From the NCBI GenBank assembly GCA_019636275.1, contig JAHBXY010000002.1, positions 56,213-120,212 of the forward strand: a DNA stretch of 64,000 nt, in the 5' to 3' direction. Below are positions 96 to 55,530 of the stretch, in pieces. Under the pieces are notes generated by a model. It was not told the DNA's origin. It worked only from the letters and a program-made list of their open reading frames with translations, and ran no database searches. The translations under genes and the position numbers were made by a program. How positions within the stretch are numbered: position 1 is the stretch's first letter; every line of letters starts with the position of its first letter. Source of the stretch: Planctomycetota bacterium (GTDB taxonomy: Bacteria; Planctomycetota; J058).

Positions 96-812
96 TCAGT
101 GACCGCCGTGGCCGCCACCGCCGTGGCCGCCACCGCCATGGCCGTGGCCCGGCGCTCCGTGACCCGCTGCCTGCCCGTCGGTGCGCTTCTCGAGCGCCAT
201 CTTGCAGACCGTGCACTTCGCCCGCGGATCACGCGAGGTGACCTGCGGGTGCATCGGGCAAGCGTAGATGAACGGCGCCGCCACCAGGTCCATCTTGCAC
301 TTGGCGCACTTCCCCGCCGCGGCCTGCGGCGGCACGCAGTTCATCGGGCACGCGTGCTCGACCAGGCGGGCCAGGCGGAACGGCACCTCGATCGAGACCT
401 CGCCCTCGGCGCCGGGCACCTTCGTCAGACGTACGGTCCCGGTCGCGCTCCCCTCGGCCACCCCGGCCAGATCCGCGCGTCCCTGCAGGTGCTTCGGTGC
501 GCGATCGCGCGAGGGCTTCAGTTCGATCGCAACTGGCTCACGGCCACCCTCCTGAAAGGTGAGCTGGATCGTCCCCTCGGACTCCTTCAGATCGACGGGC
601 CTCTGGTCGGCTCCGACCGCGAACACGTGCACACCTTCTCTGTCGAACGCGACCTCGACCTTGATCGGCCCCGCCTCTCGAACGAGCCCGCCGTGCGGGC
701 CGACGACCTCAGCCTGTTGGGGCGCGGGTGGTGCCTGGGCGGCAGCCGCGTCCAAGCCGACGAACATGCAGCTCGCCAGCGCCATTCCAATCATTGACAT
801 CTTCATGTTCAA
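96..812 (-). CDS. secreted heavy-metal-binding protein: signal peptide, two CPM(H/N)P...CxxC heavy-metal-binding modules, His/Gly-rich C-terminus (HGHGGGGHGGGGHGGH)
   Basis: N-terminal hydrophobic signal (MKMSMIGMALASCMFVGLDAAAA); motifs HACPMNC...CAKCKM and YACPMHP...CTVCKM; last gene of the minus-strand cusBAC-like operon. Confidence 0.7.
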   Translation of the reverse strand: MNMKMSMIGMALASCMFVGLDAAAAQAPPAPQQAEVVGPHGGLVREAGPIKVEVAFDREGVHVFAVGADQRPVDLKESEGTIQLTFQEGGREPVAIELKPSRDRAPKHLQGRADLAGVAEGSATGTVRLTKVPGAEGEVSIEVPFRLARLVEHACPMNCVPPQAAAGKCAKCKMDLVAAPFIYACPMHPQVTSRDPRAKCTVCKMALEKRTDGQAAGHGAPGHGHGGGGHGGGGHGGH

Positions 813-1227: not shown

Positions 1228-2571
1228 CGCACCTCCCACGATCGTGGAGTCGCCCACCGCGCGCCGGAGCTCGGCCTCGGCGATCGATCGTTCGCCGCGC
1301 GTCCGCTCGAGCTCGAGCTGCTGGCTGAGCAGCATGCGGCGCGCGTCGATCAAGGCCAGGAAGTCGAGCTGGCCGCTCACGTAGGCGGTCTCCGAGACCT
1401 CCACGTTCTGCCGCGCACGCGGCAGGGCCTGGTCGCGGACGATCCGGTGCTGCTCGCTGGCGGCATGGAGGCGGCTGGCCGCCGCGCGGACCTCGTCCAG
1501 CACCCGGTTCCGCGCCGCTCGCGTCTCGGCCTCGGCGCGGCGCACGTTGGCCTCGGACTCCCGGACGCCGGCGCGGATCCGACCCCACCAGATGGGCAGC
1601 GAGATGCCGCCCGTGAGCTCGATCTCGTTCTCGTCCTCGCCGAAGTCCCGCACGTAGGCACCTCCGAACACGACGTCGGGGACCCACTCGAGCTCGGCGC
1701 GCGAGAGCATCTCTCGCTCGGCCTCCCACCGCGAGCGGAAGGCGGCCAGCTCGGGGCGAAGACGGAACGCGCGCTCGAACAGGACGGAGAGCGCCTCGGG
1801 GGTCGCCGGCTCCGGGAGCGGGGCGACCGGGCCGAGCGGCGCGTCGGGCGCGCGGTCGAGCAGGACGTTCAGCGCGCTCGCGGCGAGCTCGACGTCGCGC
1901 ACGAACCCGGCGCGCTCGGCCCGGAGCCCGTCGCGCTCCACCTCGGCGCGCAGGACGTCCGACTGCGTGGCCTGACCCGCCGCGTAGCGCGTCCGAGCGA
2001 TCTCGATGAACCGCTCCAGGAGCCCGAGGTTCTCGTCCGCGAGCTGCACCTCGCGGCGCGCGACGTGGAGCACGGCCAGGCTGCGGGCCGCCTGCTCCCG
2101 GAGCTGGTTCGTGCGCTCGGCGAGCTCGGCCCGCATCCCGCGCGCCTCGGCCAGCGCGGCCCGACCCTCTGCGAGCAGCTTCTCCGGGAAGGGCACCTCC
2201 TGCATGAGCTCGACCGTGTGCATCTTGAACATGGACGAGTAGCCATATCGCAGCCACGGGTCCGGCAGGGCGGTCCGCTGCGGCGCGCGCTCGAGGAACG
2301 CCACCCAGCGCTCGAAGGCAGCCACGACGTTCGGGTTGCGGCGCACGACCTCGTCGGTGACGCGGTCGATGGTGAGCTCGCCCTCCAGGTGGAGGGGTGG
2401 CTGGCTACCCTCGGCGAGCGAGAGGTCCGCCGGGTCGAACGGGTCGCGCGGCGCGCCCCAGCCCAGCGCGTCGCGGAGTTCGTCCGCCTCGCGCCGCTGC
2501 TCGGAGTACGACGCGCTGGTGCAGCCCGCGACGCCGAGCAGAGCGATCGAGAATAGCCCGGGGGTCCTCAC
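1222..2571 (-). CDS. outer membrane efflux protein (TolC/CusC/CzcC family) lipoprotein
   Basis: GTG start preceded by GAGGAGG; lipoprotein signal MRTPGLFSIALLGVAGC; long coiled alpha/beta-barrel OMF-like sequence; start overlaps stop of RND pump (GTGA). Confidence 0.75.
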   Translation of the reverse strand: MRTPGLFSIALLGVAGCTSASYSEQRREADELRDALGWGAPRDPFDPADLSLAEGSQPPLHLEGELTIDRVTDEVVRRNPNVVAAFERWVAFLERAPQRTALPDPWLRYGYSSMFKMHTVELMQEVPFPEKLLAEGRAALAEARGMRAELAERTNQLREQAARSLAVLHVARREVQLADENLGLLERFIEIARTRYAAGQATQSDVLRAEVERDGLRAERAGFVRDVELAASALNVLLDRAPDAPLGPVAPLPEPATPEALSVLFERAFRLRPELAAFRSRWEAEREMLSRAELEWVPDVVFGGAYVRDFGEDENEIELTGGISLPIWWGRIRAGVRESEANVRRAEAETRAARNRVLDEVRAAASRLHAASEQHRIVRDQALPRARQNVEVSETAYVSGQLDFLALIDARRMLLSQQLELERTRGERSIAEAELRRAVGDSTIVGGAP

Positions 2572-5500
2572 GTCGTCACCTCCTCGGGGAGCTCTGCTGC
2601 CTCGGGGTGGAGCTTCTCCCAGCGGCCCTTCCGGTACCAGTAGAAGATCACCGGGATGAAGATGTCGATCACCTCGTCCGCGACGAGGATCCCGCCGAGG
2701 ACCGGCGCGGCCATGGGTCGCATGATCTCGGCCCCCACGCCCTCGGAGAACAGCATGGGCACGAGGCCCAGGATCAGCGTCCCCTCCGTCAGCAGCTTGG
2801 GACGCAGCCGATGGACCGCGCCCTCCACGACCGCGTCCTTGAGCTGCTGGAGCGAGCCCATGCCCTCGAGCCCGCCACGCCGCTCGACGGCCTCTCGCAG
2901 GTAGACCAGCATGATGATCCCGGTCTCCGCGGCGAGGCCGAAGCAGGCGATGTAGCCGACCCACACGGCGACCGAGAAGTTGAAGCCGAAGAGCCACTGG
3001 AAGATCACGCCGCCGACGAGCGCGCCGGGGACGGCCAGCATCATGAGCCCGGCGTCGCCGAGGTCCTGGTAGGTCAGGTACAGGATCACGAAGATGAGGA
3101 ACACGACGAGCGGCACGATCAACGACAGCGTGTTCTTGGCGCGGACCTGGTGCTCGAACTGGCCGCTCCACTCGACGAACATGCCCGCCGGGAGCTTGAC
3201 CGCGTCCTTGACCGCTCGCTGGGCCTCCTCGACGAAGCCGATAATGTCGCGGTCGCGCACGTTGAGCTGCACGTAGGCGCGCAGCAGGCCGTTCTCGCTC
3301 TTGATCATCGACGGACCCTGGAGGACGCGGACCGTCGCCACCTCCGCGAGGGGGATCTGGATCGGCCCGTCGGAGGCGAGCGTCGCGGCGGGGACGGCCA
3401 TGCCGCCGTCCATGCCGTCGCCGGCGGCCGCCATCGGCGCGCCCCCGCCGCTGACCAGGATCCGCCGGATCTGCTCCTCGTCGGTGCGCAGGTCGCGTGG
3501 GTATCGGACGCGCACCGAGAAGCGCTTGCGGCCCTCGATCGTGGTCGTGATCCGCCGACCACCCAGCGCGACCTCGATCGTGTCCTGCACGTCCTGCACC
3601 GACACGCCGTAGCGGGCCGCCCGCTCGCGGTCGATGTCGATGTCGATGTAGTTCTCGCCGACGATCTGGTCAGGGAACACGTCGACGGCGCCCGGGATCC
3701 CACGCAGCACGTCGGCGACCTGGTTGGAGACGTCCTGGATCTTCTGCAGGTCGTCGCCGAAGACCTTCACGCCGAGCATGGTCCGCACACCCGTTGCGAG
3801 CATGTCGACGCGGTTGATGATCGGCTGCGTCCAGATGTTCCCCCAGCCCGGCACCTGGGCGATCGTGTCCAGCTCCTGGACGAGCTCGTCCTTCGTCTTC
3901 TGCCGCAGGAGCAAGCTCGAGGGCGCCGCGAAGGTCGCCTCGACGTCGCGGGCCTTGGCGGCCTCGGAGAGGGAGGCCCGCACGACCTCGGGCGCGCGGT
4001 CCTCGAGCTCCCAGTCGAGCTGCTTCACCCGCTCGCGCACGAGCTCGTCGCGGCGAGCCTCGAGCGACTCGAGCAGGCCGGCCGTGACGGTCGGGGCCGG
4101 GCGGTCCGTGAGGAGGCGCAGGGGCGCGACCACCGCCTCGAACCCGCCGGGCGTGCGCTCGAGGAGCGCCCCCGCGTCGGCGACGCCCGAGGCGTCGAGC
4201 GAGCGGACGGCGTCCTGGGCCGCCGCCGAGACGTCCCAGGCGAGCGGATAGCGAGCGAAGAGGGGGCCATACGTCGGCAGGAGCGCGTTCACCGCGCTGT
4301 CGATCGCCGCCGCACCGACGTCGCGCTCACCGACGAGGTCCGTCACGAGACCCCGCACGAGCGCCTGGCCGAGCTCCGGCGCGTACTCGTCGAGGCGGCG
4401 CTCGGCCAGCTCGCGGAGCGTCGCGTCGAACGTGGTCGCAGCGTCCATGGCGATCGCGTTGGCGTCGTCGTCACGGCCCGGCAGGGCCGCCTTCGCTGCG
4501 GCCAGGAAGTGGTCGAAGTCGAGCGCGCGCCGGGGCCAGGTCTCGGTCGGCTGGAGCGTGATGATCGTCTCCACCATGTCGATCGGCGACGGGTCGGTCG
4601 GCGTGTCGGCTCGGCCGGCCTTGCCGACGACGGCGCGCACCTCGGGCAGCGTGCGCAGCAGGGCGTCGCGGTTGGTGAGGTCCTCGGCCGCCTCGGTGAT
4701 GGACGCGCTCGGCACGGTCACCGGCATGTCCATGATCGACCCCTCGTTCAGGGGCGGCATGAACTCGCGGCCGAGCTTGGGCCACAGGTTCAACCCGATG
4801 CCGATGAGGATCGCGAAGTTCAGCGCAACCAGCTTCGGGCGCTCGAGGAGGAACAGCAGCACGGGCCGGTAGACGTCGATCACGCTGCGCAGCAGCCAGC
4901 TCTCGCGCTCGCCGCGGAGGCGGCCGCGCACGAACGTGGGGATCAGCGCGGGCACGAGCGTCACGGCCAGCAGGGACACGCCGATGAGGGCGAAGGACTT
5001 CGTCAGCGCGAGCGGGTGGAACATCTTGCCTTCCATGCCGGTGAGCGCGAACACGGGCAGGAAGGAGACGAGCATGATGACGACGGAGAAGAACAGGGGC
5101 CTGCCGACGACCTTGCAGGCCTGCAGCACGATCGGGCGGGTATCGCCCGTGACGGGCTGGTCGCCGAAGTGCTCGTGGAGCCGCGCGTACGCGTTCTCCG
5201 TCATGACGATCCCGGCGTCGAGGAGCACGCCGATCGAGATCGCGATCCCGGCGAGCGACATGATGTTCGACGGGACGTCGAGGTAGTACATGAAGATGAA
5301 CGAGATCAGCACCGCCAGCGGCAGCGTGGCGCAGATCACGAACGAGCTGCGCAGGTGGTAGAGGATCAGGAAGACCATGAGCGAGGCGACGAGCATCTCC
5401 TCGATCAAGGTCTTGGTGAGCGTGCCGATGGCGTCCTGGATCAAGGGCGTTCGGTCGTAGAAGGGGACGATTCGCACGCCTTCGGGGAGACCGGCCTGGA

Positions 5501-6455
5501 GCGTCTCGATGCGCGCCTTGATGCGCTCGGTCACCGCCAGCGGGTTCTCGCCGTAGCGCATGAGCACGACGCCGCCCACGGCCTCGCCGCCGTCCTTCTC
5601 GAGCATGGAGCGTCGGGGCTCGGGGCCGAGCTGCACCGCGCCGAGGTGGCGCACGAAGATCGGCACGCCGTCGCGCTCGGCGACGACGATCGACTCGATG
5701 TCGCCCTTGCTCTGGATCCAGCCCTCGCCGCGGATCAGGAACTCGGCGCGGTTCTTCTGGAGCACGTTGCCGCCGACCGAGCTGTTGGCGCGGGCCACGG
5801 CCGAGAACACCTCGCCGAGCGTCACCCCATAGGCGCGCAGCCGCCCGGGGTCGACGTCGATCTGGTACTCCTGGACGAAGCCGCCGACCGACGAGACGCC
5901 CGCGACGCCCGGCACGGCGTTGAGCTGGTAGCGGACGTACCAGTCCTGGAGCGTGCGCAGCGCGCCGGGGTCGAGCCCGCCGCCCTCGACCGTGTACCAG
6001 AAGATCTGGCCGAGCGCGGTCGCGTCGGGCGCCATGTAGGGCACGACGCCGGGCGGCAGGAACGTGGCCGAGGTCGCCAGCCGCTCGAGGACGCGCTCGC
6101 GCGCGAAGTAGAACTCGACGCCGTCGTCGAAGATGACGTTGATCATCGAGTAGTTGAACTCGGACGTCGAGCGCACCGCCTTCACGCCGGCGAGCCCCTG
6201 CAGGTTCACCGACAGGGGGTAGGTGATCTGGTCCTCGACCTCCTGGGGCGAGCGGCCCATCCAGTCGGTGAAGACGATGACCTGGTTCTCGGAGAGGTCC
6301 GGGATCGCGTCGACCGGCGTGCGCTGGAGGCAGTAGACGCCCCACAGCGACACGGCCAGCGTGAGCATGAGCACGACGGCGCGGTTCTTGACCGAGAACT
6401 CGATGATCGACTCGATCCAGCCGTCCTTCTGCGGCGCGGACGATCCGGCGCTCAC
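2568..6455 (-). CDS. cusA: heavy-metal efflux RND permease (HME-RND, CusA/CzcA family) with a ~250-aa periplasmic insertion (1295 aa)
   Basis: Starts WIESIIEFSVKNR...; 12-TM RND architecture; GTG start overlaps stop of adaptor gene (GTGA). Confidence 0.85.
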   Translation of the reverse strand: MSAGSSAPQKDGWIESIIEFSVKNRAVVLMLTLAVSLWGVYCLQRTPVDAIPDLSENQVIVFTDWMGRSPQEVEDQITYPLSVNLQGLAGVKAVRSTSEFNYSMINVIFDDGVEFYFARERVLERLATSATFLPPGVVPYMAPDATALGQIFWYTVEGGGLDPGALRTLQDWYVRYQLNAVPGVAGVSSVGGFVQEYQIDVDPGRLRAYGVTLGEVFSAVARANSSVGGNVLQKNRAEFLIRGEGWIQSKGDIESIVVAERDGVPIFVRHLGAVQLGPEPRRSMLEKDGGEAVGGVVLMRYGENPLAVTERIKARIETLQAGLPEGVRIVPFYDRTPLIQDAIGTLTKTLIEEMLVASLMVFLILYHLRSSFVICATLPLAVLISFIFMYYLDVPSNIMSLAGIAISIGVLLDAGIVMTENAYARLHEHFGDQPVTGDTRPIVLQACKVVGRPLFFSVVIMLVSFLPVFALTGMEGKMFHPLALTKSFALIGVSLLAVTLVPALIPTFVRGRLRGERESWLLRSVIDVYRPVLLFLLERPKLVALNFAILIGIGLNLWPKLGREFMPPLNEGSIMDMPVTVPSASITEAAEDLTNRDALLRTLPEVRAVVGKAGRADTPTDPSPIDMVETIITLQPTETWPRRALDFDHFLAAAKAALPGRDDDANAIAMDAATTFDATLRELAERRLDEYAPELGQALVRGLVTDLVGERDVGAAAIDSAVNALLPTYGPLFARYPLAWDVSAAAQDAVRSLDASGVADAGALLERTPGGFEAVVAPLRLLTDRPAPTVTAGLLESLEARRDELVRERVKQLDWELEDRAPEVVRASLSEAAKARDVEATFAAPSSLLLRQKTKDELVQELDTIAQVPGWGNIWTQPIINRVDMLATGVRTMLGVKVFGDDLQKIQDVSNQVADVLRGIPGAVDVFPDQIVGENYIDIDIDRERAARYGVSVQDVQDTIEVALGGRRITTTIEGRKRFSVRVRYPRDLRTDEEQIRRILVSGGGAPMAAAGDGMDGGMAVPAATLASDGPIQIPLAEVATVRVLQGPSMIKSENGLLRAYVQLNVRDRDIIGFVEEAQRAVKDAVKLPAGMFVEWSGQFEHQVRAKNTLSLIVPLVVFLIFVILYLTYQDLGDAGLMMLAVPGALVGGVIFQWLFGFNFSVAVWVGYIACFGLAAETGIIMLVYLREAVERRGGLEGMGSLQQLKDAVVEGAVHRLRPKLLTEGTLILGLVPMLFSEGVGAEIMRPMAAPVLGGILVADEVIDIFIPVIFYWYRKGRWEKLHPEAAELPEEVTT

Positions 6456-8620
6456 TGGCCACCGTCCTTCAGGCCGGCGCCGTCCGTCGAGGAGCTGCCC
6501 GGAGTGTTGCTGGCGCCGAAGTAGTTCGACGTCGCGGCCGGGCTGAGCCGCGCCTCGGCGTCGACGAGGAACGCGCCGCGCGTGACCACGCGATCGCCGA
6601 GCCGCAGGCCCGAGATCACGGGGTAGAAGTCGCCGGAGCGCGGGCCGAGCTCGACCTGGACCGCGTCGTAGACGCCCTCCTCCGCCTCGCGGTAGACGAC
6701 CTGCCGTATGCCCGTGTCGATCACGGCGTCGGTCGGCACCACGAGCGGGTTGTTCGGGTCGTCGTCGACCGGGACCTCGCGCGGGATCAGCTTCATGCCG
6801 CCGCACGGCGCGCACGTTCCCGGCTCGTCCTGCGTGACCTCCGGGTGCATGGGGCACTCGTAGATCGTGCGGGTCTTCGGCCCGTCGGCCGAGGGGCCGC
6901 TCGTGTTGGGAGCCTGCGCAGTCGGGGCCACCCCGCGCGCGGCCGCTGCGTCAGCGAGGATCTTCCGCGCCTCGTCCGCCGGGACGGCCCGCGGAATCAA
7001 CTCCATCGTCCCGCACTTCGTGCAGATCCCGGGCTGGTCGAGCGTCATGTCCGGGTGACCCGGGCACTCGTAGAGCGTGATCGTCGCGGGGTCCGCGCTC
7101 GGCGCCGGAATGGCCTCGCCGCGTGCGGCCGCGGCGTCCGCGAGGATCTTGCGGGCCTCGGCGGCGGGAGCGTCACGCGGGATCAGCTCCATGGTCCCGC
7201 ACTTCGTGCAGATCCCCGGGTGATCGAGCGTCATGTCCGGGTGCCCTGGACACTCGTAGAGCGTCACGGTCGACGGACCGTTCGACGGCGTCGTGGGCGC
7301 TGGTGGCTCCGTCGTGTCGGCGGCCTCCGGGACGAGCTGCGCGCCGCAGAGGCCGCACGCTCCGGGTCCCGCCGCCCGGAACACGCGATCGGGGTGCATC
7401 GGGCAGCGACAGGCATACCCCGGGGAGGAGGACTGCCCGGCCGACAGCTCCACGGGCGTCAGGGCCATGCCGCACTTCGGGCAGTCGCCGGGGGTGGTCT
7501 GCTCGATCTCGGGGCACGCCGAGCAGCAGCGGTAGACGACAGGGTGCGTCGCGGTCTCGACCTCCCCCGAGGGACCGATCGGCGTGCGCAGCGACGCACG
7601 GACGTACATGCCCGGCCGCAGGAGGCGCGCCCCGTTCGGGACGTCGACCCGCACGCCGACGGTGCGCGTGCGCGGATCGATCATCGGATCGATGAACGAG
7701 ACGAACCCCTCGAACGCGCGACCGGGGTAGGCGCTGGCGCCGATCTCGACCCTCTGACCGAGGTGGACGAACGGCGCCTCATCCTCGAACACGCGCGCGA
7801 TCATCCACAGGACCGAGAGGTCGGCCACCGTGTACATCGGCGCGCCCTCCTCGACGTAGTCGCCCGCGACCACGCTCTTCGACATGACCGTGCCGGAGAT
7901 CGGCGAGGGAACGGTCACGTGCACGGCGGGCTCGCCGGCCACGACCATGGCGTCGATCTGCTCCGCGGACAGGCCCCAGAGCAGGAGTCGCTGCCTGGCG
8001 GCCGCGAGCATGGGGCCGCCCTGCTTCTGCGCGAGCAGGAGCTCCCGCGAGCTGGTGAACAGGTCCTGGCTGTACACCTTCGCCAGCGGCGCGCCGCGCT
8101 CGACCTCGATCCCGGTGAAGTCGACGAACAGCTCGTCGACACGGCCCTTGACGCGCGCGGAGATCCGCGCCAGGCGCCGCTCGTCCACGTCCACGGTCCC
8201 GACCGTGTCGATCACCCGCTCGAGCTGGCGGCGCGTGACGAGAGTCGTCGCCACGCCGGCCAACCGCACGCGGTTCGGCGCGAGCTGGACCCGGGCGAGC
8301 ACTCCCGGGGGCAGCGCCTCGGGCTCTCCCCTCTTCCGCTTCGACAGCGGCATGCCGCAGATCGGGCAGCTCGCCGGCTCTGCCCGGATCACGTTCGGGT
8401 GCATCGGGCAGTAGTACTCGTGCTCCGACAGCCCGACCGAGTCCGGCGCGACCGCCGGCTTCGTGAGTCGCTGCAGCCGCACGAGGATCGTGTCCCACGA
8501 GGCCACCAGCAGGGCGACGATCACCATGAGCCCGATGAAGCGAAGCCGGACGACGATCACGCGCAGCGCCCACAAGACCTTGCCGGCGACCCCCGTCAGA
8601 GACGATCGAATGTTCATGCG
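6452..8620 (-). CDS. cusB: RND membrane-fusion (periplasmic adaptor, CusB/HlyD family) protein with 1 N-terminal and 5 C-terminal CPMHP/CxxC heavy-metal-binding modules
   Basis: ATG MNIRSS with GGGAG RBS; N-terminal TM anchor; EYYCPMHP...CPICGM; HlyD-like barrel/lipoyl region; C-terminal repeats YECPGHP...CTKCG (x2), YACRCPMHP, YECPMHP. Confidence 0.8.
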   Translation of the reverse strand, partial: RMNIRSSLTGVAGKVLWALRVIVVRLRFIGLMVIVALLVASWDTILVRLQRLTKPAVAPDSVGLSEHEYYCPMHPNVIRAEPASCPICGMPLSKRKRGEPEALPPGVLARVQLAPNRVRLAGVATTLVTRRQLERVIDTVGTVDVDERRLARISARVKGRVDELFVDFTGIEVERGAPLAKVYSQDLFTSSRELLLAQKQGGPMLAAARQRLLLWGLSAEQIDAMVVAGEPAVHVTVPSPISGTVMSKSVVAGDYVEEGAPMYTVADLSVLWMIARVFEDEAPFVHLGQRVEIGASAYPGRAFEGFVSFIDPMIDPRTRTVGVRVDVPNGARLLRPGMYVRASLRTPIGPSGEVETATHPVVYRCCSACPEIEQTTPGDCPKCGMALTPVELSAGQSSSPGYACRCPMHPDRVFRAAGPGACGLCGAQLVPEAADTTEPPAPTTPSNGPSTVTLYECPGHPDMTLDHPGICTKCGTMELIPRDAPAAEARKILADAAAARGEAIPAPSADPATITLYECPGHPDMTLDQPGICTKCGTMELIPRAVPADEARKILADAAAARGVAPTAQAPNTSGPSADGPKTRTIYECPMHPEVTQDEPGTCAPCGGMKLIPREVPVDDDPNNPLVVPTDAVIDTGIRQVVYREAEEGVYDAVQVELGPRSGDFYPVISGLRLGDRVVTRGAFLVDAEARLSPAATSNYFGASNTPGSSSTDGAGLKDGGQ
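6900..7280. repeat. near-perfect tandem duplication (2 x 186 bp) inside the adaptor gene, duplicating one metal-binding module
   Basis: Protein repeat TLYECPGHPDMTLD(H/Q)PGICTKCGTMELIPR...ARKILADAAAARG occurs twice back-to-back; nucleotide repeats are nearly identical. Confidence 0.8.
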
Positions 8621-8874
8621 TGCTCCCTCGCGCCGCGCGCCTGCGCGCGGCCCGGTGTCTGCTGGAAGACCAGACGACGTGGTCCTGCCCGAGGTCGGCG
8701 AACGCGTGGTGGTGCACCTGCGACCGCCCACGCCGCGAGCGGCTGCAGGAGAGGACGCAGGGACCTTCCGGGACTTACAGCCCGGGTCGCGATCCGACGT
8801 GAGGACAGGAGGGGTGGGGGAACGTCGGTGCAGGCGCGGATCGACCGCGGCTCACACCGTCCCCTGGGGAGCCA

Positions 8875-9345
8875 TCAACAACGAAGAACGTGGAGCTCGA
8901 GATGCCGTCGAAGCGCTGGAGCACGCGGCTCGGTCGCTCGAACTGTCGCCCGGAGCACGCCAGAGGTCGGCGCAATCCACCCATCGAGCACCATCGGGCT
9001 CAACGAGAGGCCGAGCTCGGTCGAACGATCGAAGCCGGGACTCGAGCTCGCGGGGGACTCGGACGGGGACTGCTCGAGGACGATCACGGGGCAGCCGCAG
9101 CCGGCGGACTTGATCGCCTCGTCCGTCTGGGTCTGCTGAGCGGGCTCGCCACCGGAGCAGCAGCCATGCGCCACTTGCGGCGACGGAGCGCTCACGCTGT
9201 GACAGGAGGCCTGAAGGTCGGAGGCGTCGTCTGCGCAGAAGGTGCCATGGGAGGTGGCGTCGCAGGCGCACAGGTCGACGACCCCGCCGGCGAACACCAG
9301 CAGGACGGCGAGCACGACGCACAGTGGACGGGAAGCCGGACCCAT
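8875..9345 (-). CDS. hypothetical secreted Cys-rich protein (signal peptide, CAC...HGCCSGG...AGCGCP)
   Basis: ATG MGPASRPLCVVLAVLLVFAGG; 3' end runs into the promoter region of the adaptor gene. Weak support. Confidence 0.25.
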   Translation of the reverse strand: MGPASRPLCVVLAVLLVFAGGVVDLCACDATSHGTFCADDASDLQASCHSVSAPSPQVAHGCCSGGEPAQQTQTDEAIKSAGCGCPVIVLEQSPSESPASSSPGFDRSTELGLSLSPMVLDGWIAPTSGVLRATVRATEPRAPALRRHLELHVLRC

Positions 9346-9539
9346 GGGCGCCGATCCTACCTCGACTTCGATGTTCGACACAACGAGCGTTCGGAGCACC
9401 GGTACTTCAACCCCGGCGGCGTTCGAGACATTCCCGAGGCGGGTCCTGGGCTTCCGCTTCATGCAGACGCTTCGCTCCTGGCCTTCCATCAGCTATGACG
9501 ACGTCCGGCGCGCCAGGGTGCGGGCCGAGGAGGTTGATC

Positions 9540-9782
9540 ATGCGACGTTGGTTGGCGTGGGTCGGGGGGCTCGGGTGCCTCATGCTCGCCCTCGCCTTTC
9601 CGTCGACGCAGGGGCCGGTCGCCCGCGCCGTCGCGCAAGACCGCCACGGTGGTTCACACGGCGGGCCTGCGACCGACGTCGGCGCGCTGTTCCGGCAGCA
9701 GTGCGCCTCGTGCCACGTGACCCCGGACCCGGGCGTCGCGACCGACCGGGCCTACATCAGGCAGCTCCAGGAAACGGCCTGA
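9540..9782 (+). CDS. c-type cytochrome-like protein fragment (signal peptide + CXXCH heme-binding motif CASCH), ended by an in-frame TGA
   Basis: ATG with GAGGAGG 6 nt upstream; MRRWLAWVGGLGCLMLALAFP signal; QQCASCHV. High GC3 coding signal continues in the same frame past the TGA. Confidence 0.5.
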   Translation: MRRWLAWVGGLGCLMLALAFPSTQGPVARAVAQDRHGGSHGGPATDVGALFRQQCASCHVTPDPGVATDRAYIRQLQETA

Positions 9783-9902
9783 AGCGACACTCCGCAGGAG
9801 GCCCGTGAGGCGCTCCAGAAGTTCCTGAACGAGCAGACCGACGGCCGGCCCCGCGCCGCCGTCAACCGCGACAAGGCCGAGCCCGGCGAGGGGCTCGTCG
9901 AA

Positions 9903-10310
9903 GTGAAGGCCAACCGCCCGGGCGAGGCGCTCCTCCGCGACGCCAGCGGCACCGTGTGGCGGCTGCCCTGGACGGCCGCGCCGGCGCGCACGTTCGCGCT
10001 CCCGACGGGGACCTACGCGTGGGTCACCTATCGACTCGTCGAAGACGTGTGGCACGTGTCCGTCACCGGTCAGCTCGCGACCGTCGAGGTCAAGGCGGAC
10101 GGGACCGCCCCGCTCGAGGCGCAGGACGTGATCAAGATCCGTCTCCGAGGCTCGGCTCGTCCGGGTGGTGTCCAGGTCGACGCGGGGCTCTCTGGTGCCG
10201 CGCGTGGTGGCATGTCGCTCTATCGCGACGGTCGTCGCGTCGCGCTCACGTGCCAGGTCTTCGACGAGTCTGGCGGCGAGCTCGGGAGCGCACCCCTGCG
10301 CTATGGGTGA
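9903..10310 (+). CDS. hypothetical protein in the same frame as the upstream cytochrome-like ORF (coding signal starts at 9783, right after the TGA)
   Basis: High GC3 from 9783 to 10310. No ATG before 9903 (a possible GTG at 9897); ends with a second in-frame TGA. Confidence 0.35.
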   Translation: MKANRPGEALLRDASGTVWRLPWTAAPARTFALPTGTYAWVTYRLVEDVWHVSVTGQLATVEVKADGTAPLEAQDVIKIRLRGSARPGGVQVDAGLSGAARGGMSLYRDGRRVALTCQVFDESGGELGSAPLRYG

Positions 10311-10322
10311 GGCGGCGGTGGT

Positions 10323-10496
10323 ATGGCCTCGGTGAGGCCAACGAAAGCTGACCGTCCTGCCCGGCTCCGGCTCGTGTTGCCCGAGGGCGTCCCGTTCCCG
10401 ATCGAGGGTGCGGTCGAGGTCGAGATCGGAGCCCCGTCGGCGGGTGGTCACGGCGGCGGTGGTCACGGCGGCGGCGGCCACGGTGGCGGCCATTGA
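10323..10496 (+). CDS. small ORF ending in a His/Gly-rich tail (GGHGGGGHGGGGHGGGH), same frame again
   Basis: 57 codons; the tail resembles the C-terminus of the 96..812 metal-binding protein. Confidence 0.25.
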   Translation: MASVRPTKADRPARLRLVLPEGVPFPIEGAVEVEIGAPSAGGHGGGGHGGGGHGGGH

Positions 10497-10598
10497 GCTG
10501 ATCGAGCGACGGAGGACCCGGGCTGACCGGGTCCTGCGCCGCTTCATCGACCCGCGTCAGGATGTCAGGTGCGCGGTTGGGGTACGATCGCTGACGTC

Positions 10599-11228: not shown

Positions 11229-11435
11229 CTACTTCTTCTCGTCGTTGATCGGGCAGCAGCAGGGCGAGATCTCCTCGCCCGTGAGCGGGCAGATGATCGT
11301 GTCCGTCTGCTGCGCCGACGTCGTGGGCGCGACCGCGGCCACGGGCTCGGTCGAGACCGGCCGGGTCGCCGCGTAGATCGCAGGTCCGCCCGCAGCGGCC
11401 GCCACAGTGAGAGCAACCAGCACCTTCGTCATCAT
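11229..11435 (-). CDS. small secreted Cys-rich peptide (signal peptide; ICPLTGEEISPCCCP), putative metal-binding/chaperone-like
   Basis: AAGGAGG RBS; ATGA overlap with the upstream MerR gene; 68 aa. Confidence 0.5.
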   Translation of the reverse strand: MMTKVLVALTVAAAAGGPAIYAATRPVSTEPVAAVAPTTSAQQTDTIICPLTGEEISPCCCPINDEKK

Positions 11436-11900: not shown

Positions 11901-13680
11901 TACCTAGTTCCTGGCCGAGCACCAGGAAGTCCGCTTCGCAGGCTGGAGTCCTGGCGCCAGGTCGCGCCCATCTGGCCCATCCAAAAACCAAACATCGGAG
12001 GTAGAGGAGCGGCTCGCCGTCGGCGGCGAGGTGTATGGAGAGGTTTGGAACGACAACCCCAAGCCCCACACACCGAGGCGAGCCATGCGACGAACGATAC
12101 CGAAGCAGCGCCGACTGTTCACCCCCCTTGTCGAGGACGCGCTCTCCGAGGAGCTGGTAGAGATCGACGAGCTGATCCGTCTTCACCCCGAGTGGGAGGA
12201 GTGGATCCTGGAGGACCTCACGAACAGGAGGCGCGGCCGTGCGCGGCGCGGGCGTGAGGGCATGGGGCCCGATCTGGTGCTGCGGCTCCAGTTCCTCAAG
12301 CATCGGCTCGACGTCTCGCTCCGGAAGCTGTCGAAGATCGTCAATGACTCCGTCGGCTTTCGCGAGTTCCTGGGCCTCGGGGTCGAGGACCGTGCGCCGA
12401 AGCGCTCGACGATGCAGGACAACCTGGCGAAGGTCCGGCCCGAGACGTGGGGGAAGATCCTCCACTCTCATGTCCAGTCGCAGGAGCTGCGCGAGTTCGA
12501 GTCCGGTGACAAGCAGCGCGTCGACGCGACGGTCGTGAAGGCCAACATCCACCCTCCCTCCGACTCGTCGTTGCTCTGGGACGGCGTGCGGACGTTGACC
12601 AGGCTCATGAGCCAGGCGCGCCAGCTCTTCCCCGAGGTCGAGTTCGAGGACCGCAGCAAGCAGGCGAAGCGGCTTCAGTCGAAGATCTACTGGGCCCGCC
12701 GAAAGGAGCAGCGCCGCCCCGCATACGAGGCTCTGTTGAAGGAGGTGCGCTTCGTCGACACCCAGGCCGAGCGCGTGATCACGTCGCTGGAGACCGTCCG
12801 GACTCGCTCGGTGCAGGACGGCGTTCTCCGCGACGCGTTGGCCTCGGAGCTCCGTCGGTACCGCGGCCTCACCGCTCGCGTGATCGACCAGACCGAGCGG
12901 CGGGTCGTGCGGGGCGAGACGGTGCCACCCGGCGAGAAGCTGTACTCGATCTTCGAGCCTGAGACGGACATGATCGTCAAGACGAAGAACCGGCCGCCGG
13001 AGTTCGGGCACAAGGTCACGTTCACCATGGGCGTGCACTTCGTCCTCGACTGCGTCGTCGAGCGTGGGAACCCGGCGGACGTGACCCTCGCCGTGCGCCA
13101 GGTCGAGCGCCAGACGGCGCTCCGCGGGAAGGCTCCCGAGCAGGTGGCCTTCGACGGGGGCTACGCGTCAGCGGCGAACCTGGAAGCGATCAAGGCGCTT
13201 GGCGCCGAGCGCTGCGCGTTCAGCAAGGGCCGCGGCCTCACGCCCGTCGACATGGCAGGTAGCCGACGAACGTTCGGCCGTCTGCGCAACTTCCGCGCAG
13301 GCATCGAGGGAAAGATCTCCTGGTTGAAGCGCGACTTCGGTCTCGGCCGGTGCACATGGAAGAGCTGGCCTCGGTTCAGCTCGTACGTGTGGTCGGCTTG
13401 CTTCGCCGCGAACCTGAGCAAGCTCGCTCGGTTGAGGCTGAGCGCGACGGCAGCGCCAGCCAAGCGCGCCGCGTAGCCCATCGTCGCAGATCCGCCTCGC
13501 AGGCCCCCTTCCTGGGAGAGAGTGCGTACTCGTAGCCGCGACAACGAACGGAAGCGCCTCGAATACGGCTCAGCAGGCCGAGGAACTGTCTGCGAGCGCG
13601 CCGGCACACTCCAGCGGCCGGGTGGTCGCCGGCCTGGAGGCCGCGCCCCAGGCCGATTTCGGCCAGGAACTACCTAGGTA
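11901..13680 (+). mobile_element. IS element (IS5/IS1182-like), ~1.78 kb, imperfect terminal inverted repeats tacctag(gta)ttcctggccga
   Basis: IRL 11901-11918 and IRR 13659-13680 are reverse complements; single DDE transposase ORF; left end sits 20 bp upstream of the MerR start codon. Confidence 0.65.
12031..13476 (+). CDS. DDE transposase (IS5/IS1182-like family)
   Basis: Motifs AFDGGYASAANLE, FGRLRNFRAGIEGKISWLKRDFGL; the antisense ORF 11878..13038 is rejected. Confidence 0.7.
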   Translation: MYGEVWNDNPKPHTPRRAMRRTIPKQRRLFTPLVEDALSEELVEIDELIRLHPEWEEWILEDLTNRRRGRARRGREGMGPDLVLRLQFLKHRLDVSLRKLSKIVNDSVGFREFLGLGVEDRAPKRSTMQDNLAKVRPETWGKILHSHVQSQELREFESGDKQRVDATVVKANIHPPSDSSLLWDGVRTLTRLMSQARQLFPEVEFEDRSKQAKRLQSKIYWARRKEQRRPAYEALLKEVRFVDTQAERVITSLETVRTRSVQDGVLRDALASELRRYRGLTARVIDQTERRVVRGETVPPGEKLYSIFEPETDMIVKTKNRPPEFGHKVTFTMGVHFVLDCVVERGNPADVTLAVRQVERQTALRGKAPEQVAFDGGYASAANLEAIKALGAERCAFSKGRGLTPVDMAGSRRTFGRLRNFRAGIEGKISWLKRDFGLGRCTWKSWPRFSSYVWSACFAANLSKLARLRLSATAAPAKRAA

Positions 13681-31123: not shown

Positions 31124-31585
31124 TCGGCTGACGGCCGCAAGGGCGAGGCATGCCCGCCGCATGATGCGGGCGAGATGGATCGGATTCGCGTGGTGTGGAA
31201 CTCCTAAGTCCAGTGGCCGCACACCATCCTCCAGGAGTCGGATGGGCCGGGTAGTCTAGCCGCAGGGCGGCTTTCATCGCTTTAAATGTTTCTGCTCGCG
31301 ATCCTGCAGTTTTGACGACTTAACCCGTGCTGCGCCAGCTGTCCGGTTTGATGTGGCAGGGCTGTTCTGCCAAATTGACAACGTGGCGCTGGGTCAGGGT
31401 TCATCCTGCGTCGGTTGCGCGTGGCCCGCCCTGTGCAGGTGAGGTGCGGCCAGGCGTTCGACTCCGGTCTGCCCCAAACCCACACCGAACCATCGGCGGT
31501 GCGGTCCCGGGCGGCGACTTTGAAGGTTGTTCCTCCGGGAGGGCCAACGTCGCGGTCAGTCGTGCTCGGGCGGTGGAGGGAGCTC

Positions 31586-32788
31586 ATGAGTACACGCCCC
31601 ACGAAGGAGGGACCACGCCCGACCAGGCGAACGCGCCCTGGCCCCGCTGACGCGATGAGCAGGCACATTCCTCCCGCAGTTCGGTGCTCTCTCTGGGGAC
31701 GGGCTTCAGGTCGTTGCGAGTTCTCGGGCTGCAACCGTGCCGTGTCGTGGCACGCGGTGACGATGGAGGCGGGCAACTTCGCGGAAGTCGCGCACATCGT
31801 CGGGTTCAGCAAGGACGGACCCCGCGGTGAGGCCTTCCTCTCCGCGGACCTCGCCAAGGACGTTTCGAATCTCATGCTCCTCTGCCGTGGGTGTCACGAC
31901 CTCGTCGACAAGGACCCCACGAACTATACGGTGCATGTGCTCCAGGACATGAAGCTGGCCCATGAGCAGCGCGTGGAGCTGGTCACGGGCATCGCCGAGG
32001 AGAAGAAGAGCCACGTCCTGCTCTACTCCGCCAACGTCGGCGACCACGGTCCGGCGTCTACGTTCCAGCGGGCTGCGACCGCCATGTCCCCCGACTCGTA
32101 TCCGGCAGAGACGTATGCGATCTCACTTGGGTTCTCGAACAGCGCCATTCGCGACACCGACGACGACTTCTGGGCGATCGAGCAGAGGAACCTGACCGCG
32201 TCCCTGAAGGAGCGGCTGCGACCTCGGCTGGCTCGAGGCGGCGACATCTCCCACCTCGCCATCTTCGCGGTCGCGCCTCAGCCGCTGCTCATGCAGCTCG
32301 GATTCTCGCTGTCCGACATTCCTTCGGCCGAGACCTTTCAGCTGCATCGTGAGCCTCCAGGTTGGAAGTGGCGCTCTCACCCGCCGCGGTCACGGTTCGT
32401 TGTTGTGGAGCCGACCGAGATACGCGGGGCCCCAGCCCTCGTGCTCTCGTTGAGCGCGTCCATCTCGCCCGAGCGCGTCAAGGCTGTCCTGGGCGAGGAC
32501 GTGACGATCTGGACCCTCACGGTCGACGAGCCGCACAACGATTTCCTGCAATCGCGACAGCAGTTGAAAGAGTTCCGCGAGACGGTCCGGCCGCTCCTTG
32601 ACCTGATCAAGCTCAAGCACGGCGAGAGCTCGTTGCTGCACGTCTTCCCTGCCATGCCCGTCTCGACTGCGGTCGACTTCGGTCGTGTGCTCATGGCCAA
32701 GGCCGACCTGCCGATCAGGGTCTACGACCAGAACCGGTCCAAGGGCGGCTTCGTCCATGCTTTGGATCTCGTGTCGAGTCCTTTGTAG
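31586..32788 (+). CDS. cap5: CBASS effector, Cap5-like: N-terminal HNH endonuclease + C-terminal SAVED domain
   Basis: HNH motif CSLWGRASGRCEFSGCN...AEVAHIVGF...LMLLCRGCHDLVDKDP; SAVED-like halves HLAIFAVAPQPLLMQLGFSL / LLHVFPAMPVSTAVDFGRVL; GGAGGG RBS before ATG 31586 (alternative ATG 31655). Confidence 0.65.
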   Translation: MSTRPTKEGPRPTRRTRPGPADAMSRHIPPAVRCSLWGRASGRCEFSGCNRAVSWHAVTMEAGNFAEVAHIVGFSKDGPRGEAFLSADLAKDVSNLMLLCRGCHDLVDKDPTNYTVHVLQDMKLAHEQRVELVTGIAEEKKSHVLLYSANVGDHGPASTFQRAATAMSPDSYPAETYAISLGFSNSAIRDTDDDFWAIEQRNLTASLKERLRPRLARGGDISHLAIFAVAPQPLLMQLGFSLSDIPSAETFQLHREPPGWKWRSHPPRSRFVVVEPTEIRGAPALVLSLSASISPERVKAVLGEDVTIWTLTVDEPHNDFLQSRQQLKEFRETVRPLLDLIKLKHGESSLLHVFPAMPVSTAVDFGRVLMAKADLPIRVYDQNRSKGGFVHALDLVSSPL

Positions 32789-32803
32789 GACGAGAGGGCC
32801 AAC

Positions 32804-33536
32804 ATGGCAGAGCACCTTTCACCGGAGCGCATGGAGCAGTTCAGCCGCATCCTCGGGGATCTGGCCGACGACCTCGATGTTCCACCGTCGAAGTATGAGG
32901 AAGCGAAGGAGCACTACGACGCGGTAGGGGCGTGGCTGAACGACAGCCCCGACCTGGCCGCCCTGAACCCGACCATCTACCCACAGGGGTCCTTCGCTCT
33001 TGGCACCGCGATCAAGCCGGTTGGCGATGGCGACTATGACGTCGATGCCGTCTGCGTACTCCAGCTCAGCACCGCGACCACGACCCAGCACGCAGTGAAA
33101 ACTCTCGTCGGTGATCGCCTGAAGGAGAACAAGACGTATGCCCGCATGCTGCACCCCAAGGCGGGTGGGCGTCGTTGTTGGACCCTCAAGTACGCTGACT
33201 CGTCCAACTTTCATCTCGACATCTTGCCGGCCGTTCCCGATAGCCAAAGGGAGCTTGTCCGGCTCGGCGTCCCGCCCGAGATCGCGAAGTACGCAATCTG
33301 CATCACCGATCGCGAGCTCTGGGCCGTCGCGTTGACCTGGCCGCGGAGCAACCCGCAGGGCTACGTCGAGTGGTTCAAGTCGCGGATGCGCGTTGTCTTT
33401 GAAGAGCGTCGCCAGCTACGCGCGCTTGAGATTCGCGCCTCGGTCCAGGACATTCAGGACTATCAGGTCCGAACGCCCCTTCAACGTCTCATTCAGCTCC
33501 TGAAGCCCACGTTCCAGAGATCTCGGCCGTGCTCCG
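32804..33536 (+). pseudogene. nucleotidyltransferase (SMODS/CD-NTase-like; GS...DxD motif), N-terminal fragment interrupted by an IS1634-family insertion
   Basis: YPQGSFALGTAIKPVGDGDYDVDAVCVL; reading frame runs into the IS inverted repeat at ~33537. Confidence 0.55.
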
Positions 33537-35688
33537 CCCAATTATGTGTCTGCCAGAGTGGGGCTGAGTCGTCCTGCGCGTCCTCGGCGACGGGCTACTT
33601 CGCCTTCTTGGCCCTCCAGCCGCGGTGGCGTGGCTTCGGCTCCGCGAGTTGGGCATAGGCGACGCCAGGATCCGTCAGCATCGAGTGGTTGAGCAGCTCG
33701 AGCGCGTCACGCTGTGCGGTCGTCATGTTCGTCACGGTCACGCCGGGCACCCCGTCGACGCGGATCGTGTTGATCCCCTCGAAGAGACGGAAGACGACCT
33801 CCGTGGTCGGTCGCGTGGTCCAGCCCTTGTTCCCCGGGAAGTCGGCCCCGTGCTGCTCGAGGAGGCGGCGCACCTCCCGCTGGATGAGCGCGTAGACCAT
33901 CAGGGCCAGCACGTAAACGAGACCGAGCGCCGCGATCCGGGCGTCGGTCTTCAGGAACAGCGGCGCCACCTGTTGTGGATTCTTGAAGATCCGGATCGCG
34001 GTCTCGACCAGGTTCTGGTCCTGGTACGTGCGGAAGAGCTCCTGGTCCGAGCAAGCGTCGGGCCCCGTCGACGGGCGGGTCGTGATCAGGACGAAGCAAC
34101 TCTCGCGAAGGATAGCCTCGTCGACGTCGTGCTGGTCGTGTTCGATCGTGAGCACGGCGCGCCATACCGTTTCCATTTCGCGCTGCTCGTCTGCTGGCGG
34201 TCGTCCCGGGCCGGGGCGCTTCGTCGGTCGACGCTCGGCCACCACGCCAGCGACAAGCCGGTGAAGGTCTGGGCCGTGCCGCTCGATCGCGGCCGCAGCC
34301 GCGCGCCGGGCGTCCTCGTCGCACTTGAACTCGCGCTTGCCGAGCCGGACTGCGATCCGTTCGAGGCTCTTGCGCTCCTTGTCTCGTCGCGCCTCGATGA
34401 TCGCCGTCTTCTGCTCGCGCAAGGTCGTGGACTCAACGACGAGAGCGCGGATCGGGAACTCGTGCTCGACGCCGGTCGACTCGTCCTTCCAGCGATAGGA
34501 GAGGGCACACGAGCGGCCGTTCCACTCCTTCTCCGGCTCCGCCTCGAGGTCGTCGACGGCAGTCCCGTCCTCCAGGAACACCTTCGGGTAGACGACCTTC
34601 AGGCGAGTGAGCGGCTCGTCGCGCCCGAGAGCCGCGCGGAAGGCAGTGAACGCCTCCCCCCAGAGCCCGACACCGCGCGGCATCATCGTCAGGACATGGA
34701 AGCCGTGCTTCTGCGCGAGCAGCAGCGTCTCGCCCGAGAAGAGCTTGGCGTCGCCGACGATCGTCGTGCCCCGTGGGTCGGGGAGGACCTCGGCGAGGCG
34801 CCCCATGAGCCAACGGGTCTCCTGCGGGTCACTGCGGTTGCCGGACGACACGCGACCGAGAACGGCGACGCCGCCGTCGCAGGCCACGGCCAGTCCGTAC
34901 ACGATCTGCTTCAGGTCGCTCCGATAGTCCTTGCTGTGGCCTCTCGTGACGTGTGGAACCGCTCGCTCGTCCTCCGGGTCCAACGGCGGCACGCTGGCCG
35001 CATACTCGCCGTAGACCGAGACGGACGAGGTGTCGACGTGAATGGTCCCGAGCTCGAGGTCGTGCACTTTCACCGCACGAACGACGGCTGCAGCTTGGAT
35101 CTTCGTCGGGCCCGCGGCGAACGTGTCGTCGAGCGCCCGGGCCAACCGGTCGTCGTGGAACTGGGCGCAGCTCCCCTTCCAGCCGAACGCCAGCTCGAGG
35201 TCGTACGGCGCGAGGAGCTCGTCGATCCGATAGAGAGTGTGCCGGCCCAGCAGGATCGCGACGATCAGGGCCTCGACGCACTCACCCGCGCTCACACGAC
35301 TGCGCGGGTCCATGGGAACGATCTCGTCCACGAGGGCTGCGACGTCGAGCTGCCGCAGAGCACGTCCAATGATCGGCAAGAAGTCGAGGCGCTTCGCGCT
35401 GGCTTGCATGTGCCCTCTCCTCGCACGCCCGCGTGCGCGGGGCAAGGACAGCACGACAGCGGCCAGCACATCTCCAGCGTCCACGCCTCGCGCGGTCCAG
35501 TTGCGCATCCTTGCGCATCAGAAGCGTCTCCGGAGTGCAGCCGAACGGCGCCACGGAGTGGCCTCCAACACGGAGCTCCAACAGAATGCGCGCGGCGCGC
35601 CAGATGCACGCCAGTCGCCGCGGCTCGCCCCCCTGGGCGGCGGGGCGCCGTCGTCGGCTCTCAGTTGTTTGGCAATTACATAATTGGC
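33537..35688 (-). mobile_element. IS1634-family (IS4 superfamily) insertion sequence, ~2.15 kb, imperfect ~30-bp terminal inverted repeats (ccaattatgt...tgcca...ctgag)
   Basis: IRL 33537-33568 and IRR 35657-35688 are reverse-complementary; large DDE transposase inside. Confidence 0.65.
33595..35409 (-). CDS. IS1634-family DDE transposase (604 aa)
   Basis: Length and motifs typical of IS1634 (HVDTSSVSVYG, DGGVAVLGRV, PRGVGLWGEAFTAF); the antisense 782-aa ORF is rejected. Confidence 0.7.
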   Translation of the reverse strand: MQASAKRLDFLPIIGRALRQLDVAALVDEIVPMDPRSRVSAGECVEALIVAILLGRHTLYRIDELLAPYDLELAFGWKGSCAQFHDDRLARALDDTFAAGPTKIQAAAVVRAVKVHDLELGTIHVDTSSVSVYGEYAASVPPLDPEDERAVPHVTRGHSKDYRSDLKQIVYGLAVACDGGVAVLGRVSSGNRSDPQETRWLMGRLAEVLPDPRGTTIVGDAKLFSGETLLLAQKHGFHVLTMMPRGVGLWGEAFTAFRAALGRDEPLTRLKVVYPKVFLEDGTAVDDLEAEPEKEWNGRSCALSYRWKDESTGVEHEFPIRALVVESTTLREQKTAIIEARRDKERKSLERIAVRLGKREFKCDEDARRAAAAAIERHGPDLHRLVAGVVAERRPTKRPGPGRPPADEQREMETVWRAVLTIEHDQHDVDEAILRESCFVLITTRPSTGPDACSDQELFRTYQDQNLVETAIRIFKNPQQVAPLFLKTDARIAALGLVYVLALMVYALIQREVRRLLEQHGADFPGNKGWTTRPTTEVVFRLFEGINTIRVDGVPGVTVTNMTTAQRDALELLNHSMLTDPGVAYAQLAEPKPRHRGWRAKKAK

Positions 35689-36541: not shown

Positions 36542-36622
36542 CTGAGCCGGTGGCTCGGGCGCCCTAGCGAACAGGATCTCGCCGCAGGTCTCAATCGGAT
36601 CAATTAAAGAAGTGACTGCTGC

Positions 36623-55456: not shown

Positions 55457-55530
55457 CCTGCCTACGTGACCCTCGATCGGATTGTAGCGGAGCTGCCCCA
55501 ACCCTCGCCACGTCCAGTAAATACGCACCG

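Follow-up and report, generated by a model that had tools for sequence, protein, structure and literature searches.

Two in-frame TGA codons in a planctomycete metal island probably encode selenocysteine in a family of exported proteins with a cytochrome-c-like module

The periplasmic pentahaem cytochrome c MccSep (ExtKL) of Geobacter sulfurreducens is a selenoprotein that acts as a polysulfide reductase (NF040886; bioRxiv 10.1101/2025.11.18.688581). One of its haems is His/Cys-ligated, its single selenocysteine (Sec) lies on a C-terminal immunoglobulin (Ig)-like domain 3.6 Å from that Cys, and its redox pair is formed by Cys239 and Sec325 (bioRxiv 10.1101/2025.11.18.688581). We describe here a locus at positions 9540-10496 (forward strand) of a 64-kb stretch of Planctomycetota bacterium DNA (contig JAHBXY010000002.1 of assembly GCA_019636275.1, positions 56,213 to 120,212), hereafter the window, numbered from its first letter. 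One reading frame crosses two in-frame TGA codons at this locus. Our data indicate, with a probability of roughly 85%, that it is a genuine selenoprotein gene in which each of two Sec codons is followed by its own hairpin resembling a selenocysteine insertion sequence (SECIS), and that it represents a widespread family which is absent from Pfam and NCBIfam and routinely mis-annotated.

Like MccSep, the protein is predicted to be exported, carries a CXXCH motif, is encoded by a gene that annotation splits at an in-frame UGA with a SECIS-like hairpin behind it, and has both Sec-type and Cys-type members. The Sec of MccSep sits on an Ig-like domain beside the ligating Cys; here, a Cys or Sec follows the CXXCH and a second Sec lies in an Ig-like domain. 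Unlike MccSep, the protein has one CXXCH instead of five and two Sec instead of one, the Sec itself occupies the putative ligand position, and the genomic context is copper efflux, whereas MccSep serves sulfur respiration. Model NF040886 gave no match at E<=1 in the 20 members searched, which places them outside that family, and PDB sequence and fold searches did not return MccSep. We regard MccSep as the closest analogue, the likeness being one of analogy and not of demonstrated homology.

His/Cys-ligated c-type haems are found in the sulfur enzymes TsdA and SoxAX (cited in bioRxiv 10.1101/2025.11.18.688581). As in these enzymes, the conserved Cys soon after CXXCH could provide a thiolate distal ligand and give a reactive, low-potential haem; unlike in TsdA and SoxAX, the residue is Sec in most members. 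An inventory of 2026 covers 119 prokaryotic selenoprotein families and gives their model identifiers; among them are the metal-related MbdU (NF045648), YHS-domain (NF041384), SO_0444 Cu/Zn efflux (NF033936), MerT-like and E1-E2 ATPase selenoproteins, a few of them with two Sec (PMC13188914). The family described here shares their heavy-metal association but differs in its motifs, T-A-U-S and Y-G-U-G-G-G as opposed to CU, GxU and UxC. The Pfam and NCBIfam models of the inventory matched neither the window protein nor 19 relatives, even at E<=1, and a literature search retrieved no paper describing the selenoprotein family, nor any on assembly GCA_026184275.1 or the SRA runs that share the locus.

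The gene and its two recoded sites were delimited as follows.

9540-10496, forward strand: probable complete selenoprotein gene of 318 codons, of which 81 and 257 encode Sec, and a final TGA; one frame with coding periodicity, homologues that span or end exactly at both sites, and a single confident AlphaFold2 fold.
9527-9533, forward strand: Shine-Dalgarno-like GAGGAGG, 6 nt 5' of the ATG at 9540, read directly from the sequence.
9780-9782, forward strand: first in-frame TGA (TGA1, site 1), read as Sec81 in a T-x-C/U motif; aligns with a nearly invariant Cys of Sec-less homologues.
10308-10310, forward strand: second in-frame TGA (TGA2, site 2), read as Sec257, part of a conserved Y-G-U-G-G-G motif; the 14 loci with an in-frame stop here all have TGA, with frame, motif and purifying selection persisting 3' of it.

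The original prediction had placed positions 9540, 9783, 9903 and 10323 in a single frame that crosses both TGA codons and continues into a His/Gly tail, and all of these coordinates hold, with ATG at 9540 and 10323 and GTG at 9903; the frame terminates with the TGA at 10494-10496, after the C-terminal sequence GGHGGGGHGGGGHGGGH. The GC content at codon positions 1/2/3 was 0.74/0.59/0.89 before TGA1 and 0.80/0.45/0.93 in the 40 codons that follow it; up to TGA2 it was 0.74/0.57/0.85, and beyond TGA2 0.82/0.61/0.77. The high third-position value reported right after TGA1 was thereby reproduced on recalculation, and those 40 codons contain no ATG, GTG or TTG. This pattern is that of real genes in the 70% GC window and is unbroken at TGA1. 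The openness of the frame alone is not significant, because overlapping long open reading frames (ORFs) are frequent in 70% GC DNA; the above-chance evidence is codon-position periodicity and, above all, conservation in relatives.

Relatives were collected by an exhaustive HMMER search with the conceptual fusion, which yielded 182 cluster representatives, one per 50%-identity cluster. A word-indexed protein search with the fused sequence gave no match, the family surfacing only by exhaustive HMMER, and blastn against plasmids found no match for the locus. The narrow pattern C[AV]SCH[VLF][TAI]PD recovered few true loci, 4 from genomes and 1 from metagenomes; its other matches L009, L010 and L012-L015 were unrelated cytochrome-like sequences and were rejected as family members. 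The end points of the representatives, counted on the best 150 of the 182 HMMER matches, coincided with the two sites: 111 ended with '...YG' right before site 2, short N-terminal pieces stopping exactly before site 1 accounted for 22, and another 22 crossed site 1 with a Cys.

At the DNA level, 13 distinct homologous loci besides the window, from Armatimonadota, Planctomycetota and metagenomes, were read through their stops. TGA stood at site 1 in 11 loci, among them the window, one Armatimonadota metagenome-assembled genome (MAG) and two MAGs of Planctomycetota, and 4 loci had Cys there; site 2 was TGA in 14 loci and Thr (ACG) in 1. At both sites the UGA is thus conserved as UGA with coding sequence beyond it; a Cys aligns with the UGA at site 1 and none does at site 2. 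An in-frame stop at either site was never TAA or TAG, even at an Armatimonadota locus of 53% GC, whose own stop and nearby same-frame stops are mostly TAA or TAG, and relatives with TGA at both sites range from 53 to 71% GC. The sequence 3' of each site is conserved: site 1 is followed by the motif TPxxARxALxxYL, site 2 by GGG...R(L/V)x(L/F)Px(n)PFx(n)G. Compared with the closest relative (L016), the ratio of non-synonymous to synonymous substitution rates (dN/dS) was 0.20 for the 40 codons that lack a start and 0.24 for the tail beyond TGA2; over the four relatives compared, the tail gave 0.17-0.38. The next in-frame start codon after the TGA lies 2 to 173 codons away depending on the locus, and the pieces are therefore not independent genes. 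No frameshifts were seen across these loci. In locus L023 (2746-3099), the tail past the site-2 TGA is far longer, about 117 residues with a Cys-rich/Lys-rich end (CKSGTCDDDEVGGLNCADGKC), and the N-terminus contains HHDDHEHHEDH.

The search for a SECIS stem-loop after each TGA, which the original prediction had suggested, gave a hairpin at both sites.

9797-9816, forward strand: SECIS-like hairpin 1, arms GGAGGCC and GGC-G(bulge)-CUCC closing a CGUGA loop at +25 to +29, counted from the U of UGA; from RNA folding.
10324-10340, forward strand: SECIS-like hairpin 2, arms UGGCCUC and GAGGCCA closing a GGU loop at +24 to +26, counted from the U of UGA; from RNA folding.

Across loci, the hairpins start about 14-17 nt 3' of each UGA and have stems of 6-9 bp and G-containing apical loops at +23 to +29. 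Eleven loci retain hairpin 1 at an unchanged distance, and the stems of the Planctomycetota copies are quite different (GGCGACG-GUG-CGUCGUC); at site 2, pairing is kept in the variants GGGCUUU-GGU-AAAGCCC, GGCGCUCG-GUU-CGAGCGCC and CGGGCCG-GGUC-CGGCUCG. In the site 1 alignments, 81.8-85.7% of cells were paired, as opposed to 31-61% in slid controls, with compensatory changes in 5/7 to 6/8 pairs. The site 2 alignment had 86.8% of cells paired (37-62% in slid controls) and compensatory changes in 5/7 pairs, and none of 500 shuffles matched its covariation score; at site 1, too, the score was matched by no shuffle. A strict hairpin definition was satisfied at 15 of 25 TGA sites and at 3.3% of other in-frame positions in the same genes. 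The criteria of Zhang and Gladyshev from 2005 reportedly comprise a stem-loop just 3' of the UGA and a G-containing apical loop roughly 16-37 nt away; both hairpins fit this loop distance and have the G in the loop. Their position and covarying stems have the layout expected of bacterial SECIS elements. A covariance model built from the site-2 hairpin and scanned across the window detected site 2, missed site 1 and found no further elements; it is no evidence that the two hairpins share more than their general layout. Selenocysteine, one of several options left by the original prediction, is strongly supported by the TGA conserved at both sites, the Cys found at site 1 elsewhere and the covarying hairpins after both. 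We take site 1 as Sec to be close to certain and site 2 as Sec to be very likely, the missing Cys counterpart leaving some room for partial termination.

The domains of the predicted protein are listed below.

9540-9638, forward strand: predicted signal peptide, residues ~1-33 (MRRWLAWVGGLGCLMLALAFPSTQGPVARAVA/Q), from n-, h- and c-regions and an AxA site identified by eye.
9675-9857, forward strand: minimal cytochrome-c-like module, residues ~46-106 (helix, CASCH encoded at 9702-9716, helix, Sec81, helix), from AlphaFold2 helices and family-profile PDB matches.
9885-10427, forward strand: two predicted Ig-like beta-sandwich domains, residues ~116-296, running across TGA2, from AlphaFold2.
10443-10493, forward strand: His/Gly tail GGHGGGGHGGGGHGGGH, presumed metal-binding, from the sequence; the tail is also found in L016 and, much alike, in the HMBD protein at 96-812 (reverse strand).

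AlphaFold2, run with X at both TGA sites and a 106-sequence alignment, predicted one compact fold spanning all three pieces of the frame (predicted local distance difference test (pLDDT) 84.2, predicted template modelling score 0.78). The leader was disordered, with pLDDT <50 over residues 1-41; a comparable hydrophobic leader stands at the start of all 14 homologous loci, with a lipobox in two. Helices were predicted at residues 47-54, 67-79 and 86-98, followed by beta-sandwiches from 117 to 296 whose final strands come from the piece after TGA2, mostly with pLDDT >90. PDB fold searches with the model returned just generic beta-sandwiches (Ig, FN3 and macroglobulin domains) and no cytochrome. 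Several family members bear His-rich or His/Gly tails.

The cytochrome-like assignment was made at profile level. CASCH corresponds to residues 55-59, whose C, C and H are invariant in the alignment of the N-terminal domain and conserved at >=90% in the full-length alignment, giving the CXXCH in an exported protein that characterises class I c-type cytochromes. A profile of the module matched only class I c-type cytochromes in the PDB, with a best E of 3e-5 and mainly over the helix plus CXXCH, and its third helix aligned weakly with the C-terminal helix of QcrC domains (TPxxARxALxxYL here, LTPDEKRDIVAYV in QcrC). Like class I c-type cytochromes (PF00034/PF13442; QcrC domains, mitochondrial cytochrome c), the protein is predicted to be exported and to have an N-terminal helix, CXXCH and two more helices; unlike them, its module is only ~55 residues long, scores below cut-off and has Cys/Sec instead of a Met/His distal ligand. 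Class I cytochromes carry the distal Met in the loop corresponding to the position of Sec81. This residue, Cys in other members, is the most conserved along with C-x-x-C-H and lies in the loop between helices 2 and 3; the predicted topology suggests that Sec81 occurs where the distal haem ligand normally lies.

Four other explanations were weighed. It is improbable that site 1 alone encodes Sec and that the TGA at 10308 acts mostly as a stop, whether real or leaky, giving a 256-residue protein and a longer form only with plentiful selenium or never. The lack of Cys at site 2 in Sec-less homologues would suit such an arrangement, as would the prediction of the tail by gene callers as a separate 57-aa ORF and an ATG with a purine-rich stretch 4 codons past TGA2 in the window; however, this ATG is missing from most relatives. 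The site-2 TGA is nearly universal and forms the end of 111/150 representatives, the tail is in frame at every one of the 14 loci and has its conserved motif and the low dN/dS given above, and stop-free homologues read straight through site 2. The covarying hairpin stands at SECIS distance after TGA2, and the tail strands complete the second sandwich with pLDDT >90. On these grounds we favour Sec at both sites.

Recoding by something other than the Sec machinery, that is by a near-cognate or suppressor tRNA (Trp, Cys or Gly) or an altered genetic code, has a slimmer chance still. The 64 kb window showed no sel genes, and conserved hairpins after stops can also stimulate generic readthrough; on the other side, the TGA/Cys alternation at site 1 and the distance and loops of the hairpins fit the Sec system, and Armatimonadota, Planctomycetota and other lineages with GC contents from 53 to 71% have TGA at both sites. 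TGA is moreover the usual stop in the window (21 of 32 genes) and ends this gene as well; the code has therefore not been reassigned, and TGA read as Sec remains the preferred reading.

Public annotation would have three separate small operon genes with genuine stops: gene calls at loci L001-L003 and many database entries split the locus into small ORFs of 80, 135 and 57 aa, with GAGGGG 9 nt 5' of the GTG at 9903 and the ATG at 10323 soon after TGA2 as possible initiation signals. We consider this highly improbable, as 40 conserved, strongly coding codons without a start codon follow TGA1, the pieces are always in the same frame without a spacer, only piece 1 has a signal peptide, and the predicted fold is continuous. 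Homologues made of a single ORF with Cys at site 1 also speak against it. Two in-frame stops are a classic sign of a decaying pseudogene or of a sequencing or assembly error, both raised by the original prediction, and the island bears transposases, but the chance of either is negligible: error is excluded by 100% identity in four assemblies (the DNA around the 80-residue first piece, both TGAs included, is identical in NCBI MAG GCA_026184275.1 and two independent SRA assemblies, thus in three others, and seven contigs carry the first piece in all), and decay is taken as excluded by conservation and a dN/dS well below 1 downstream of the TGAs, with the same two TGAs in >100 clusters at 50% identity or less.

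The selenoprotein gene lies in a metal island, together with a Cus-type resistance-nodulation-division (RND) pump, an adaptor with six HMBD repeats, an extracytoplasmic function (ECF) sigma factor, a MerR regulator, two further RND systems and a P-type ATPase. Among close relatives, the copper storage protein Csp follows the gene in L016 and L018, an HMBD protein precedes it in L021 and a P-type ATPase adjoins it in L026. At one Planctomycetia locus it comes after ArsR and an SBF-family transporter. The HMBD-domain protein at 96-812 (reverse strand) has the C-terminus GHGAPGHGHGGGGHGGGGHGGH, nearly the same His/Gly tail as the selenoprotein; the sequences suggest that the tail may be a shared metal-binding module of the island. 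Two further features flank the gene.

8875-9489, reverse strand: Cys/His-rich small protein (CAC, HGCC and CGCP motifs), divergent neighbour conserved in the close clade; its counterpart at the corresponding place in L016 (1538-2023, reverse strand) shares 56% identity.
10514-10534, forward strand: GC-rich hairpin GGACCCGG-GCUGA-CCGGGUCC past the true stop, possibly a terminator though it has no T-run; -35 kcal/mol when 10497-10550 is folded.

The true start of the divergent gene is probably internal (MGPASRPL...), and its product had no Pfam or NCBIfam match; the region is called as a gene in L001, and Logan gene calls put an opposite-strand ORF there instead. A scan for consensus promoters and terminators gave no match.

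We propose that SelB with Sec-tRNA(Sec) would recognise each hairpin while the ribosome is on the UGA, leading to selenocysteine insertion; with the UGA codons recoded, the three gene-caller pieces (80, 135 and 57 aa) would therefore be made as one chain. The chain would be exported by the general secretory (Sec-dependent) route and then receive a covalent haem on the CASCH of its minimal class-I-like cytochrome c module. Sec81 could serve as the distal axial ligand, producing a His/selenolate (or His/thiolate) haem, and Sec257, in a Gly-rich loop of the second Ig-like sandwich, may by analogy with MccSep pair with Sec81 as a redox or metal-binding pair. Periplasmic copper/chalcogen redox handling is suggested because of the His/Gly tail and the neighbourhood (Cus-type efflux with HMBD, MerR, ECF sigma factor, Csp in relatives). 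Haem binding, ligation by Sec and a copper/chalcogen redox role are each tentative to doubtful. That they combine into a natural c-type haem with a selenolate (Sec81) as distal ligand, working with Sec257 as a monohaem, two-selenium counterpart of MccSep on periplasmic copper/chalcogen substrates, is unlikely in our estimate. We know of no report of Sec as a natural haem ligand.

Several observations weigh against the selenoprotein reading or its biochemical extension. Site 2 is Thr, Ser, Asn, Gly or Arg in Sec-less homologues and not Cys, a replacement that is not typical of a catalytic Sec. The folding energies calculated for the hairpins from single sequences, in GC-rich RNA, were not significant relative to shuffles (z -0.5 and -0.9), certain relatives show GGC instead of GGU loops or bulged or weak stems, and the hairpin arms overlap the conserved peptide motifs, so that part of their conservation is at the protein level. 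No selA, selB, selD or tRNA-Sec was found within the 64 kb window, where Rfam at gathering thresholds and ARAGORN gave no match, and the gene sits on an island that is probably mobile. The cytochrome-c-like N-terminus of the original prediction stood at the level of PDB profile matches and did not reach curated thresholds: PF13442 scored only 15-16 bits with a cut-off of 27, and PF00034 and NCBIfam cytochromes matched only at E>=0.005. The cytochrome matches span mainly the helix plus CXXCH, and the fold search was without a cytochrome. Haem binding, ligation by Sec81 and the copper role are only inferred, and the neighbourhoods of other distant homologues are unrelated to metals.

The GC content of the window is 0.60-0.72 up to ~41 kb and 0.72-0.79 beyond. 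The lower-GC part (1-41100) contains three RND efflux systems, a P-type ATPase, defence genes and transposases, as well as a phage-type integrase (39669-41075) beside an HTH_17 gene, and looks like an integrated mobile island; the selenoprotein gene may therefore have been acquired horizontally. No tRNA was found at the ~41 kb junction. A DDE transposase (DUF772 plus DDE_Tnp_1; 12031-13476, forward strand) lies between the MerR and MarR genes. These are separated by a gap of only ~125 nt in L001 and L003, otherwise the same locus, indicating a recent insertion of the element in the window strain. The longest ORF of the CusA-like pump (2568-6857, reverse strand, 1429 aa) overlaps the adaptor gene (6452-8731, reverse strand) by ~400 nt and matches ACR_tran from residue 151; its start is therefore probably further downstream. 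The ORF at 11229-11435 (reverse strand) has 4 nt in common with the start of the MerR gene and is gene-called in L001-L003 as well. Its 68-residue product carries a leader and the motif CPLTGEEISPCCCP at the C-terminus, and has no Pfam match. A CBASS-like module at 31415-33658 and 35684-37627 (both forward strand) encodes a SAVED-domain effector and then a DncV-like/SMODS nucleotidyltransferase; an AGS_C sensor-domain protein and a second SMODS-like gene lie further along this region, with a DUF4277 transposase-like ORF between. In the high-GC part, at 52709-55741 and 60432-63835 (both reverse strand), we noted an HTH-NACHT-FGE-sulfatase fusion and an LlaJI-type restriction endonuclease beside an AAA_5 (McrB-like) ATPase.

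If correct, our reading would establish a new selenoprotein family whose range takes in at least the Armatimonadota, the Planctomycetota and the window's high-GC lineage, and would add a two-Sec family matching none of the models searched from the 119-family inventory of 2026. For annotation, it would mean that at least 182 clusters at 50% identity are systematically broken into two or three "hypothetical" mini-ORFs, records that recognition of Sec would correct. Should Sec81 ligate a haem, this would be the first natural Sec-ligated haem; the small protein would let the role of selenium beside haem be tested, and echoes the chemistry of MccSep in a simpler form. Its location in a copper-resistance island suggests a link between the use of selenium and periplasmic metal stress.

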